Virus genome (UHGV): UHGV-0110227
Source: a virus
Strand: one strand, 5' to 3'
Length of the DNA stretch: 25,293 bases
A model generated the notes under the pieces. The model was not told where the DNA came from. It made no database searches and saw only the letters and a program-made list of their open reading frames with translations. Within the stretch, counting starts at the first letter, position 1; the number at the start of each line of letters is the position of its first letter. A program made the position numbers and the translations under genes. Below, one piece after another: positions 2,189-5,535 of the stretch.

Positions 2189-2246
2189 CACATTCCGTGG
2201 TTTAAGGCTTTACACGATTTGTGTTGACTATCAATCACAATATGTG
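2189..2246. promoter_or_regulatory. Right operator cluster: three CAC-N5-GTG near-palindromes (2189-2199, 2213-2223, 2236-2246) between the repressor gene and cro
   Basis: CACATTCCGTG, CACGATTTGTG and CACAATATGTG with centres spaced 24 and 23 bp, the same tripartite spacing logic as lambda OR3-OR2-OR1. They overlap the pR -35/spacer and the region just upstream of the repressor start. Confidence 0.7.
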
Positions 2247-2252
2247 TTTAAT
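2224..2252 (+). promoter_or_regulatory. pR-like rightward early promoter: -35 TTGACT, 17-bp spacer, -10 TTTAAT (approximate)
   Basis: TTGACT at 2224-2229 and an AT-rich hexamer at 2247-2252, upstream of the cro SD AAGGA and ATG at 2286. Confidence 0.6.
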
Positions 2253-2285
2253 AAAGACTGAGTGAACTAGCTCTTAAGGAAACCT

Positions 2286-2501
2286 ATGAACAACATTGCC
2301 AACGAACGGAAAAAGCTTGGCATCACTCAATCTGCGTTAGCAGGCGCGTGTGGCTGGAACCAGTCCCGCTTAGCTAACTACGAGTCAGGTATCCGGACTC
2401 CAGATTTAGAGTCGTGCCGTCGCCTGGTAAAGGCGCTGAATAAATTGGGGAGCAAGACAACGCTAGATGGCTTGTTCCCGCCGGAACACAAAGCCGCTTA
2501 A
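2286..2501 (+). CDS. cro: Cro-like HTH regulator (71 aa)
   Basis: First gene of the rightward operon. HTH LGITQSALAGACGWNQSRLANYESG is clearly paralogous to the HTH of the adjacent repressor. AAGGA SD. Not the lambda Cro sequence. Confidence 0.8.
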   Translation: MNNIANERKKLGITQSALAGACGWNQSRLANYESGIRTPDLESCRRLVKALNKLGSKTTLDGLFPPEHKAA

Positions 2502-2509
2502 GACATTCC

Positions 2510-2541
2510 CGCTCTTACACATCCCAGCCCTGAAAAAGGGC
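2510..2541 (+). promoter_or_regulatory. nutR site: boxA CGCTCTTAC and boxB hairpin GCCCTGAAAAAGGGC
   Basis: Exact lambda-type boxA at 2510-2518 and boxB at 2527-2541, between cro and cII. Confidence 0.9.
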
Positions 2542-2620
2542 ATCAAATTAAACCACACCTATGGTGTATGCATTTATTTGCATACATTCAATCAATTGTT
2601 ATCTAAGGAAATACTTACAT

Positions 2621-2917
2621 ATGGTTCGTGCAAACAAACGCAACGAGGCTCTAAGAATCGAGAGTGCGTTGCTTAACAAAATCGCAATGCTTGGAACTGA
2701 GAAGACAGCGGAAGCTGTGGGAGTTGATAAGTCGCAGATCAGCAGGTGGAAGAGGGACTGGATTCCAAAGTTCTCAATGCTGCTTGCTGTTCTTGAATGG
2801 GGCGTCGTTGACGACGATATGGCTCGATTGGCACGACAAGTTGCTTCGATTCTCACCAATAAAAAACGCCCGGTGTGCAAGACCGAGCGTTCTGATCAAA
2901 TACAAATGGAATTTTAA
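2621..2917 (+). CDS. cII: Transcriptional activator CII (lambda-type)
   Basis: Translation from ATG 2621 (MVRANKRNEALRIESALLNKIAMLGTEKTAEAVGVDKSQISRWKRDWIPKFSMLLAVLEWGVVDDDMARLARQV...IQMEF, 98 aa) matches lambda CII as I recall it. AAGGA SD upstream. The ORF track starts 60 nt too far upstream at 2561. Confidence 0.93.
   Translation: MVRANKRNEALRIESALLNKIAMLGTEKTAEAVGVDKSQISRWKRDWIPKFSMLLAVLEWGVVDDDMARLARQVASILTNKKRPVCKTERSDQIQMEF
2630..2643 (-). promoter_or_regulatory. CII-binding box TTGC-N6-TTGC of a pRE-like leftward establishment promoter
   Basis: Minus strand reads TTGCGTTTGTTTGC, overlapping the 5' end of cII exactly as in lambda pRE. Confidence 0.8.
2861..2890 (-). terminator. Leftward intrinsic terminator inside the 3' end of cII (oop-type)
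   Basis: Minus strand reads ACGCTCGG-tcttgcaca-CCGGGCGT followed by TTTTTT. Confidence 0.75.
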
Positions 2918-2928
2918 CAACATCCAAC
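2861..2928 (-). ncRNA. OOP-like short antisense RNA overlapping the 3' end of cII
   Basis: Perfect -10 hexamer TATAAT on the minus strand (plus coordinates 2935-2940) about 70 nt upstream of the oop-type terminator, in the arrangement of lambda pO/oop. The -35 is weak (TGGATT). 5' end is inferred. Confidence 0.5.
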
Positions 2929-2939
2929 GAGGTAATTAT

Positions 2940-3212
2940 ATGCGAAACAAAGGCTTTAATCCACCTGATACACACAAAGAAGCTAAGCGTTTGAGCTTCC
3001 TTCGTTCCATTGATGAAAGAACTCAAATCTCTTTTGTGAAAGTTGCCAGAACTGAGCTTCTGAAGGCTGAGGCGAGGGCGTTGATCCCGTCTCTACCAAA
3101 AGAGGAGGGATATACGTTCATTCCAAACGCATTTCTGGAAAAGCTGCTCAAAGAAGACATATCCGTAAGTCAGTTTAACGATGTTCTTAAGGTCTTTCGT
3201 CAAGGCAGGTAG
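2940..3212 (+). CDS. Hypothetical protein (90 aa) between cII and the replication initiator
   Basis: ATG at 2940 with GAGG SD; translation MRNKGFNPPDTHKEAKRLSFLRSIDERTQISFVKVARTELLKAEARALIPSLPKEEGYTF... Stop lies 2 nt before the next gene start. The track ORF 2664..3212 is an out-of-frame upstream extension across cII. No family recognised. Confidence 0.6.
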   Translation: MRNKGFNPPDTHKEAKRLSFLRSIDERTQISFVKVARTELLKAEARALIPSLPKEEGYTFIPNAFLEKLLKEDISVSQFNDVLKVFRQGR

Positions 3213-3214
3213 TT

Positions 3215-4162
3215 ATGAGCAATACAGCAAAAATCTACGATTTCAGCGCCGCACACGAGCGCAGGAGCAACAGGATGGAGAACCAGAAAACTGGTTACAT
3301 TCCGTTGTACCGGAGCATTCTGAAACAGTCATGGGCGAAAGATGTTTATCTTCGCACCCTGTGGGAAAACCTTCTCCTGAATGCCGCCAGAAAGCCATAC
3401 AAAGCGAATTTCAAAGGTCATGAATGGCATCTGCAACCCGGTCAACTGGTTGTGACAGCAGCTGATTTAGGTCTTCAGTTATGCGACAGGCATGGCAAGC
3501 CGGCAAGCCGTGATCAGGTTGAGCGGATGCTTCAGGTTTTTGTGAAAGAGGGGATGATCACCATTGATGGAGAGAAGCAAAAAGGTCGTGTGATCACCAT
3601 CACAAATTACCATGAATATGCTCAAAAAATGGACAATTCACCCGCACATGAAGCCGCACAAACAACCGCACATGATGCCGCACATGATGAAGCCAGTAAT
3701 GGCGCGGCTTTCAGCGTACATTCCGCACATGAAAGCGCACATGAAGCCGCACAAACAACCGCACATCATGAACAAGAAGGTATTAACAAGAATATAAATA
3801 ATACCCCCCTACCCCCCAATGGGGGAGGCGATGGGCAGGTTAAACATGAACGTCGCAAGGCAGAACGAATCGACTACGAATCCTTCCTGAACGCCTACAA
3901 CACCGAAGTCGGTGACAGACTGCCACACGCTGTTGCGGTCAACGAGAAACGCAAACGCCGCCTGAAGAAAATCATCCCGCAACTGAAAACGCCAAACGTG
4001 GACGGTTTCAGGGCGTATGTCAGGGCGTTTGTACATCAGGCCAAGCCGTTTTACTTCGGAGACAACGACACTGGCTGGACGGCAGATTTTGATTACCTGC
4101 TGAGGGAAGATTCGTTAACGGGAGTACGGGAAGGGAAGTTTGCAGACAGGGGGATAGCATGA
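3215..4162 (+). CDS. Replication initiation protein (lambda O / P22 gp18 functional class) with an internal repeat linker
   Basis: 315 aa, sited directly upstream of a DnaB-type helicase gene. Central AH(E/D)A peptide repeats are encoded by DNA iterons. Stop overlaps the helicase start (ATGA). Confidence 0.75.
3642..3825. other. Putative origin of replication inside the initiator gene: eight 12-bp iterons (core CCGCACA) in two clusters, an AT-rich tract, and a G/C hairpin
   Basis: Iterons at 3642, 3654, 3666, 3678 and 3723, 3735, 3747, 3759 on a strict 12-bp register. A 31-bp direct repeat lies at 3643-3673 and 3736-3766. AT-rich 3771-3805. CCCCC-aat-GGGGG hairpin at 3813-3825. Same architecture as lambda ori within O. 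Confidence 0.65.
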
Positions 4163-5535
4163 GACAGGATATCGAAGCGAGCGTTATCGGTGGCCTGCTG
4201 ATTGGTGGATTAACACCAACTGCCAGTGACGTTCTGGCAACGCTGGAGCCGGAAGCGTTTTCAATTCCGCTCTACCGGAAAGCCTTCGAGGTTATCCGCA
4301 AGCAGGCGAGAAACAGAAACCTAATCGACGCGCTGATGGTTGCCGAGGCGTGCGGAGAGGAGCATTTCACGTCAATCCTGATGACCAGTAAGAACTGCCC
4401 GAGTGCCGCAAACCTGAAGGGATATGCCGGAATGGTCGCGGATAACTATCACCGCCGTCTGGTGCTGGAAATCATGGATGAAATGCGTGAACCAATTCAG
4501 AGCGGAACCATCGACGCATCGAGTCAGGCGATGGATGAACTTGTAAAACGTCTCTCAGCCATCAGAAAGCCCCGTGACGAGGTTAAACCTGTACGGTTAG
4601 GGGAAATCATTACTGACTACACTGACACGCTTGACAGGCGTCTGAGGAACGGAGAAGAGTCCGATACCCTGAAGACCGGAATCGAAGAACTTGATGCCAT
4701 CACCGGAGGGATGAACGCGGAAGACCTGGTGATAATCGCTGCTCGTCCTGGTATGGGGAAAACCGAACTGGCGCTGAAGATTGCCGAAGGCGTTGCAAGC
4801 CGCGTTATTCCTGGTTCTGACGTCCGGCGCGGGGTATTGATTTTCTCAATGGAAATGAGCGCATTGCAGATTGCAGAGCGAAGTATTGCCAACGCCGGGA
4901 GGATGTCGGTTAGCGTGCTGCGAAATCCTGCATCGATGGATGACGAAGGCTGGGCGCGCGTTGCTAACGGCATGAGTCAGCTTGCAGATTTGGATGTATG
5001 GGTAGTCGATGCCTCGCGGTTATCGGTCGAAGAAATACGCTCAATCGCAGAACGGCACAAACAGGAAAATCCAAACCTGTCACTCATCATGGCGGATTAT
5101 CTTGGCCTGATTGAGAAGCCGAAAGCAGACCGCAACGACCTCGCAATTGCTCACATCTCCGGAAGCCTGAAGGCGATGGCGAAAGACCTGAAAACGCCCG
5201 TTATCTCCCTGAGTCAGCTTTCGCGCGATGTTGAGAAGCGACCAAACAAACGCCCGACAAACGCAGATTTGCGTGATTCAGGAAGCATTGAACAGGACGC
5301 AGACTCAATCATCATGCTCTATCGGGAAGCGGTATATGACGAGAACAGTAGCGCCGCGCCATTTGCTGAAATCATCGTGACGAAAAACCGTTTTGGCTCA
5401 CTTGGTACGGTTTACCAGCGGTTCTGCAACGGACACTTTGTTGCATGTGACCAGGATGAAGCCAGACATATTTGCACAACATCAAATGCACCTGCTGCGC
5501 GTGGCAGACGATATGCACAAGGGGCTGACGTATGA
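4159..5535 (+). CDS. Replicative DNA helicase, DnaB family (P22 gene 12 type)
   Basis: 458 aa. DnaB-like N-terminal domain and a RecA-fold ATPase domain with Walker [10 protein letters not shown]. Translationally coupled to the initiator gene. Confidence 0.9.

Follow-up and report, generated by a model that had tools for sequence, protein, structure and literature searches.

A candidate replication origin with two arrays of 12-bp direct repeats inside the initiator gene of a P22/CUS-3-like lambdoid prophage

The replication region and the repeats in the initiator gene

The DNA analyzed here (the window) is a stretch of 25,293 nt, UHGV virus genome UHGV-0110227. A cluster of short direct repeats, followed by an AT-rich tract, lies within an open reading frame on the + strand (3215-4162) that is preceded by the regulatory genes of a lambdoid phage and followed by a helicase gene. 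The genes and the parts of the encoded initiator are:

1540-2181, - strand: cI-type repressor gene, upstream of the initiator gene
2286-2501: cro, upstream of the initiator gene
2561-2917: cII, upstream of the initiator gene
3215-4162, + strand: initiator gene, lambda O / P22 gp18 type, 315 aa (open reading frame and Pfam match), with the candidate origin inside it
3272-3637, + strand: predicted N-terminal winged-helix DNA-binding domain (AlphaFold2 model)
3458-3460, + strand: codon for Ala82, a second candidate specificity residue (covariation)
3509-3550: predicted recognition helix, aa 99-112
3512-3514, + strand: codon for Asp100, candidate specificity residue for core position 5 of the repeats (covariation)
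3557-3601: predicted wing, aa 115-129
3830-4162, + strand: C-terminal domain, P22 gp18 / HK97 O type (96% DNA identity to the 3' half of HK97 O)
4159-5535, + strand: DnaB-like replicative helicase gene, P22 gp12 type (Pfam DnaB_C, E = 9.5e-78; DnaB N-terminal domain, E = 4.5e-13)

The initiator matches Pfam family PF04492 (Phage_rep_O) over aa 20-132 (E = 3.6e-15; 56.7 bits against a gathering cut-off of 28.7). Its gene shares 98-99% identity with those named "replication protein O" in CUS-3, JEP4, Gally, HF4s and approximately 50 Stx2a-converting phages. None of the GenBank records of close relatives that we inspected (CUS-3) annotates an origin at this gene. The start of the helicase gene overlaps the initiator stop, and P22-type head genes lie downstream of the replication genes.

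We modeled the initiator with AlphaFold2. The mean pLDDT was 72, with values of 80-90 over aa 40-130, and the model has helices at aa 82-88 and 99-112 and strands at aa 115-120 and 124-129. Foldseek searches of the PDB with this model gave only weak matches (E ~0.01), to generic winged-helix regulators, and a sequence search found no solved structure for the initiator or a relative. The C-terminal domain matched no family in a Pfam search. By analogy with the two-domain model of lambda O (PMC6022878), it is presumed to be the part that recruits the helicase.

Two other features lie upstream of the initiator gene, in or overlapping cII. A 182-aa open reading frame with a GTG start (2664-3212) overlaps cII and fills the ~300 bp between cII and the initiator gene (2918-3214). 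It had no match in a Pfam search and is unannotated in CUS-3. The 3' end of cII contains a terminator-like hairpin (2863-2893, - strand) made up of a 12-bp stem and a T run. Its position is that of the terminator of the antisense oop RNA in lambda and P22; in the P22 record, oop is annotated at the corresponding site. A simple scan found no promoter for an oop-like RNA near 2863-2893.

The elements of the candidate origin (3642-3825) are:

3642-3689, + strand: iteron array 1, four head-to-tail 12-bp units with core CCGCACA(T/A) (from the unit listing and the family position matrix)
3690-3722, + strand: spacer of 33 bp, the first 21 bp of which (AAGCCAGTAATGGCGCGGCTT) are conserved
3723-3770, + strand: iteron array 2, four 12-bp units, the second with a GCGCACA core and the last (CCGCACATCATG) forming a conserved junction to the AT-rich tract
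3771-3805, + strand: AT-rich, purine-skewed tract, candidate DNA-unwinding element (23% G+C; 69% purine on the + strand)
3802-3825, no strand: right-hand boundary element, made of two direct copies of TACCCCCC (3802-3817) and a CCCCC-aat-GGGGG inverted repeat (3813-3825)

We found eight 12-bp units in two clusters of four, at the coordinates given in a preliminary description of this DNA. Seven of the units contain CCGCACA and one contains GCGCACA. The units of array 1 start at 3642 (CCGCACATGAAG), 3654 (CCGCACAAACAA), 3666 (CCGCACATGATG) and 3678 (CCGCACATGATG), and those of array 2 at 3723 (CCGCACATGAAA), 3735 (GCGCACATGAAG), 3747 (CCGCACAAACAA) and 3759 (CCGCACATCATG). The 31-bp direct repeat described earlier is exact (3643-3673 and 3736-3766, offset by 93 bp), and the longest direct repeat in 200 codon shuffles of the initiator open reading frame was only 12 bp. 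CCGCACA occurs 11 times in the whole window (4.1 expected). Seven of these copies fall within 129 bp, where 0.02 would be expected (Poisson P ~3e-16). The first 9 kb of the window contain no other family of multi-copy direct repeats. The arrays are in frame with the initiator gene and, as first noted, double as coding sequence for a peptide linker, which consists of (P/A/T/S)-A-(H/Q)-x repeats.

The adjoining tract at 3771-3805, called AT-rich in the preliminary description, has 23% G+C and contains the lowest-GC 35-mer of the initiator open reading frame; only 10 regions in 25 kb are as AT-rich. A second stretch, moderately AT-rich (30-33% G+C), lies upstream of the arrays at 3590-3639. The CCCCC-aat-GGGGG sequence that had been proposed to form a hairpin is present at 3813-3825, but the hairpin is weak (-6.6 kcal/mol) and is no better than those of shuffled sequences (z = -0.9 on the + strand and -1.8 on the - strand).

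Several other features were found in or sought around the gene. One further CCGCACA, at 3249-3255 near the 5' end of the initiator gene, is absent from a homologue in a Yersinia phage and is probably there by chance. Within the C-terminal domain there is a 12-bp tandem repeat (TCAGGGCGTATG, 2.1 copies, 4008-4032) that encodes FRAYVRAFV. A terminator-like match on the - strand (3752-3735) was discarded because it is merely iteron sequence. A scan of 2200-4300 for sigma-70 promoters found none, an Rfam search of the window gave no match, and the window contains no tRNA genes.

Layout of the arrays in related prophages and constraint on their sequence

We found that the two-array structure is common to a family of loci. 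A survey of one genome per species gave 56 loci, spread over the Enterobacterales, with N-terminal domains 47-85% identical. Of these, 51 could be parsed, with N-domain identities of 64-85%. A second, independent scan, of viral contigs, gave 82 arrays. The 51 parsed loci have a common layout: the N-domain, two arrays of n 12-bp units each with a 33-bp spacer between them, a conserved CATCATGAACAAGAA junction, the AT-rich tract, and a variable right-hand module. The full origin segment was also present in 272 of 5426 complete E. coli genomes (~5%).

The number of units varies among loci in whole steps. Repeat number had been put forward in the preliminary description as a point of comparison across related prophages, and we found three units per array (3+3) in 28 loci and four (4+4) in 23, with arrays 1 and 2 equal in all 51. 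On the N-domain tree, n changed at least five times, with the arrays staying equal. The viral contigs comprised 45 arrays of the 4+4 type and 37 of the 3+3 type. We rejected equality of the two arrays as an absolute rule because one E. coli locus (L064, strain ANT; 660-800) has a 4+3 array, with a 12-bp deletion, and four contigs (L125, L163, L176 and L057) have a single array of three units. A single three-unit array is the product expected from recombination between the two arrays. Direct repeats of 31 bp should recombine often, and the products are rare; we therefore infer that the double array is kept by selection. The natural single-array and 4+3 variants may indicate that the full structure is not strictly required, or those prophages may be defective.

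The spacer and the AT-rich tract are also conserved. The spacer was 33 bp in 44 of the 51 loci by automatic parsing; for the remaining 7, whose units are degenerate, this length was taken as given. At synonymous positions 5, 14 and 17 of the spacer the information content is 1.5-1.7 bits, compared to a baseline of 0.84 bit. The first 21 bp keep their synonymous sites and the last 12 bp are free. In the 51 loci, the 40 bp on the 3' side of array 2 have a mean G+C content of 23% and a maximum of 33%, and the tract that had been singled out in the window is conserved in composition.

One relative (L059; Sodalis MAG; 2330-2720) has an N-domain 47% identical, a gp18-type C-domain and a DnaB-like helicase. 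Its iteron core is CCGRTACAC, with the 12-bp register unchanged and a different recognition helix, and the first 21 bp of its spacer are similar to those of the other loci even with this other core. It appears to carry four clusters (2+2+3+3). Most of the database proteins with this N-domain (P0001-P0073) are labeled "partial" or run to only 146-250 aa; breaks in gene calls or contigs seem to be frequent within the repeat arrays or directly past them.

Because the in-frame arrays specify a (P/A/T/S)-A-H-x repeat that separates two domains, they might simply code for a low-complexity, Ala/His-rich peptide linker that arose by replication slippage, in which case the DNA would have no binding function and the origin would be unrelated to it. 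The drop in confidence of the AlphaFold2 model at aa 141-147 is in keeping with a linker. So is the behavior of the repeats, since changes of unit number in whole 12-bp steps and the exchange of sequence between arrays are typical of slippage or unequal recombination. The codons point the other way. Read in frame, each unit has third codon positions at 2, 5, 8 and 11, and a new codon begins at position 12. The consensus over 352 units is C/G-C-G-C/A-A/G-C-A-T followed by four nearly free positions. Core position 2 is C in 350 of the 352 units. At position 5, 351 units have A or G, although GCC and GCT are Ala codons as well. At position 8, 313 units have T and 5 have C, and with either base the codon is one for His. 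Position 12, where a change alters the amino acid, is free, and the residue is Thr, Pro, Ala or Ser. For comparison, third positions in the N-domains of the same loci average 0.84 bit, and at least 1.9 bits is reached at 7.5% of them. Fixed synonymous positions next to a free amino-acid-changing position are the reverse of what selection on a peptide produces. Judged by these codon patterns, the constraint is on the DNA and not on the peptide, and we consider a mere peptide linker very unlikely. Concerted evolution between the arrays, for example through the 31-bp repeat, could inflate the uniformity of the core within a genome.

Covariation with the initiator and inheritance as a module

We found that the iteron core varies together with the protein encoded by the same gene. 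The loci fall into two classes by core position 5. The A class (23 loci) has CCGCACAT cores, and the G class (28 loci) has CCGCGCAT cores, plus degenerate CCGAGCAT copies. Only three of the 51 loci contain a single unit of the opposite class. Residue 100 of the initiator is Asp in 23/23 A-class loci and His in 28/28 G-class loci. The same rule was found in 42 distinct viral N-domains (33/33 and 9/9). At residue 82, A-class proteins have Ala or Pro and G-class proteins have Ser, Thr or Leu; residues 110, 117, 118 and 125 have weaker associations with class. This is further evidence against a role of the repeats in the peptide alone, as the choice between A and G is synonymous, uniform within each genome, and tracks a residue encoded 130 nt upstream.

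The class has switched at least twice on the N-domain tree. The locus of Yersinia vastinensis (L019) is nested in the A clade, with an N-domain 85% identical to that of the A-class locus L029, yet it has G-class iterons. It has S82, H100, E110 and T125 on an otherwise L029-like background. We considered a plain recombination event in which G-class iterons arrived along with the 3' portion of the N-domain, and rejected it because the L029 background is kept over aa 82-142 except at 82, 100, 110 and 125. There may be micro-mosaicism in L019. With approximately two independent switches behind it, the covariation could owe something to linkage or common descent.

In the predicted structure, the covarying residues fall on the helix-turn-helix and the wing, the usual DNA-contact surfaces. 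[quoted passage not shown] A plausible contact would be Asp accepting a hydrogen bond from the N6 of adenine and His donating one to guanine.

The arrays are also inherited with the N-domain, as part of a mosaic. The DNA similarity of the window splits at ~3788-3804. To the left (N-domain, arrays and most of the AT-rich tract), the relatives are Klebsiella and Yersinia phages, in which the initiator continues with a lambda-O C-terminal domain and is followed by lambda-P homologues (PF06992). To the right (the end of the AT-rich tract, the C5/G5 element, the C-domain and the helicase), the relatives are HK97, ST104 and the "Eru2" type of Stx phage. The DNA match to HK97, ST104 and P22 begins at ~3788, and the window differs from these phages in its N-domain and repeats; P22 itself matches the window only over the AT-rich tract and the hairpin.

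The N-domain, arrays and AT-rich tract occur together in all 51 loci, joined to at least three kinds of right-hand part. These are the lambda-O C-domain with lambda P (PF06992), the P22 gp18 C-domain with a DnaB-like helicase, and a third type in two loci (L047 and L057). In the lambda-type members, the sequence on the 3' side of the AT-rich tract is homologous to that after the AT-rich region of lambda (TCGTCAGAGAATTCTGGCGAATCCTCTGAC). The CCCCC..CCCCC-nnn-GGGGG element is found in the annotated rep_origin of P22virB-3, in HK97, and in L047 and L057, and its DNA is preserved while the peptide encoded there takes three different forms (those of L047 and L057 included). One locus (L015) has the same gp18-type C-domain as the window without the element. 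The hairpin belongs to the P22-type right-hand module and not to the iteron module. A 2692-bp GenBank record labeled "Staphylococcus phage SA 1298 Kay" (OR850084.1) is 88-93% identical to the enterobacterial gp18 C-domain and hairpin region, which probably reflects contamination or mislabeling.

These results also bear on which protein binds the repeats. A host protein, or a phage protein other than the product of the same gene, might be the one that does so, and the conserved 21 bp of the spacer could be the site of a second factor. However, the cores covary with the helix-turn-helix and wing of their own protein and travel with this N-domain whatever the neighboring genes, and searches of 3600-3850 for a DnaA box (up to 1 mismatch) and for the IHF consensus found no site. 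We regard binding of the repeats by some other protein as extremely improbable, slightly more so than a pure peptide linker.

Proposed origin function and comparison with known origins

We propose, with a probability of roughly 80%, that 3642-3825 is the replication origin of a P22/CUS-3-like lambdoid prophage, situated inside its own initiator gene. From the anatomy, the positional equivalence to the lambda and P22 origins, the selection on the core at the DNA level, the covariation, the modular inheritance and the conserved AT-rich tract, we infer binding, unwinding and origin activity. The N-terminal winged-helix domain would bind the eight 12-bp units head to tail, reading the 8-bp core CCGCACAT, with residue 100 in contact with core position 5. 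The nucleoprotein complex on both arrays would then stress and open the AT-rich tract (3771-3805), and the gp18-type C-domain would recruit the phage DnaB-like helicase (4159-5535). These steps are modeled on lambda, where O binds the iterons, the O-some destabilizes the adjacent AT-rich region, and the C-domain recruits the helicase complex (PMC6022878).

The geometry of the units suggests how they might be bound. As had been pointed out, a period of 12 bp is not a whole number of helical turns (~10.5 bp per turn). Since the units run head to tail and have no dyad symmetry, they suggest one winged-helix domain per unit, with a rotation of ~50 degrees per step, and not the dimer-per-palindrome mode of lambda. 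A more specific proposal is tentative, and we consider it less likely than not that all of it is right: single winged-helix domains polymerize head to tail on 12-bp units in two equal arrays whose separation is fixed at 33 bp, with initiator dimers or a second factor bound to the conserved spacer perhaps forming a bridge between them, and core position 5 is read by a code in which Asp100 specifies A and His100 specifies G. If this code holds, origin specificities could be reprogrammed and could be predicted from sequence. The geometry would be one undescribed for lambdoid phages.

In the open-access literature we found no description of the 12-bp iteron family, the double-array layout or the Asp/His-A/G rule, and no experiments on binding or origin activity for this iteron type; the iteron sequence itself turned up only in primers and unrelated matches. 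Two features go beyond the preliminary description, namely the two equal arrays around an invariant spacer and the hairpin as a part of the P22-type right-hand module. The textbook picture of lambdoid replication is unchanged. A large set of Stx2a-converting phages has this same replication module. The papers on Eru types classify the proteins of Stx phages, make no mention of origins, and describe replication in the non-lambda types as uncharacterized (PMC8044961, PMC8951638). An origin position and a specificity residue would provide a handle on prophage induction, amplification of Shiga-toxin genes and incompatibility of co-resident prophages. The family, with its two core classes, its arrays of either 3+3 or 4+4 units and its three or more partner modules, is also a natural series in which to study the co-evolution of initiator and origin and the reading of short direct iterons.

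The closest known counterpart is the lambda origin, which has four iterons and a 39-bp high-AT region inside gene O, where the O-some forms; the iterons are 18 bp long with hyphenated dyad symmetry, and each is bound by an O dimer (PMC6022878). The preliminary description saw the iterons and AT-rich region as a mirror of lambda ori, and the positions agree with this. In both cases the origin lies in the coding sequence of a Phage_rep_O initiator, directly past the DNA-binding domain, and encodes the linker of a two-domain protein. In the window the domain spans aa 20-132 and the first array starts at codon 143. The lambda domain spans aa 22-115 and the iterons (four, annotated at 39034-39118 of NC_001416) begin at codon 117, 2 codons past the domain; in P22 it spans aa 20-114 and the rep_origin begins at codon 118, 4 codons past it. 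The AT-rich region immediately follows the last iteron, as in lambda, and has almost the same composition (23% G+C and 69% purine in the window; 23% and 70% in lambda). As in ori-lambda, there is a cluster of iterons under DNA-level constraint, and their core class covaries with residue 100 of the initiator. Many members of the family also carry lambda right-arm sequence, with the O C-domain and the P partner. The units themselves are unlike those of lambda. Lambda has four 18-bp dyad iterons, whereas this family has eight (or six) 12-bp units that are head to tail and non-palindromic, so that the hyphenated-dyad iterons of ~18-19 bp that mark the lambda type are not what is found here. In further contrast to lambda, the family has two equal arrays with an invariant 33-bp spacer, and the partner in the window is a phage DnaB-like helicase and not lambda P.

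The units might also be genuine initiator sites used mainly for autoregulation, copy-number control or a transcription roadblock, with opening and helicase loading elsewhere. Plasmid iteron arrays also act in copy control, and the moderately AT-rich stretch upstream (3590-3639) could be another place for the DNA to open. However, the tract beside the arrays has the lowest G+C content of the gene, keeps its composition in 51 loci, and matches the unwinding region of lambda, including its strand skew. The layout is collinear with lambda ori and with the annotated rep_origin of P22, and the first 9 kb hold no further repeat cluster. We therefore think it unlikely that regulation is the main role of the units, and we continue to treat 3642-3825 as a probable origin.

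The right-hand half of this probable origin is that of P22 gene 18, HK97 O/P and the "Eru2" module of Stx phages (PMC8044961). The end of the AT-rich tract, the C5/G5 element, the C-domain and the DnaB-like helicase are homologous, and the C-domain and helicase are those of the P22 gp18/gp12-type module. The N-terminal domain and iterons are unlike the gp18/Eru2A type, being unrelated in sequence to those of P22 and HK97. The P22 repeats are ~20 bp long and of the TCGGTAAA type, and by our own reading of the sequences the P22 and HK97 sites are partly palindromic (cf. PMC8022706). The P22 record OQ031658 places a rep_origin inside gene 18 "by similarity to lambda", spanning the P22 repeats, the AT-rich tract and CCCCCTTACCCCCTAAAGGGGG.

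Gene 18 of phage L contains six imprecise 11-bp direct repeats (TGTCCAACGGA) that have been proposed as an origin (PMC8022706). The parallel is that in both cases short repeats (11-12 bp) within an O-like initiator gene have been proposed to be iterons on sequence evidence only. The repeat sequence differs, that paper has no two-array layout or covariation, and the likeness drawn here is between the repeats.

Iteron plasmids (RepA, RepE, pi) have direct iterons of 19-22 bp that are bound by monomers (PMC4980987). They resemble the window in having head-to-tail direct repeats beside an AT-rich unwinding element and a winged-helix initiator. They differ in that plasmid Rep proteins place two winged-helix domains on each 19-22-bp iteron, whereas one is predicted per 12-bp unit here. 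In Pfam the initiator matches only Phage_rep_O and not Rep_3, and the model shows one winged-helix domain, so that the initiator lacks the WH1-WH2 arrangement of the Rep_3 type. Taken as an origin, the segment would function in the manner of ori-lambda, and it is a mosaic that joins a new left half to a P22/HK97 right half.
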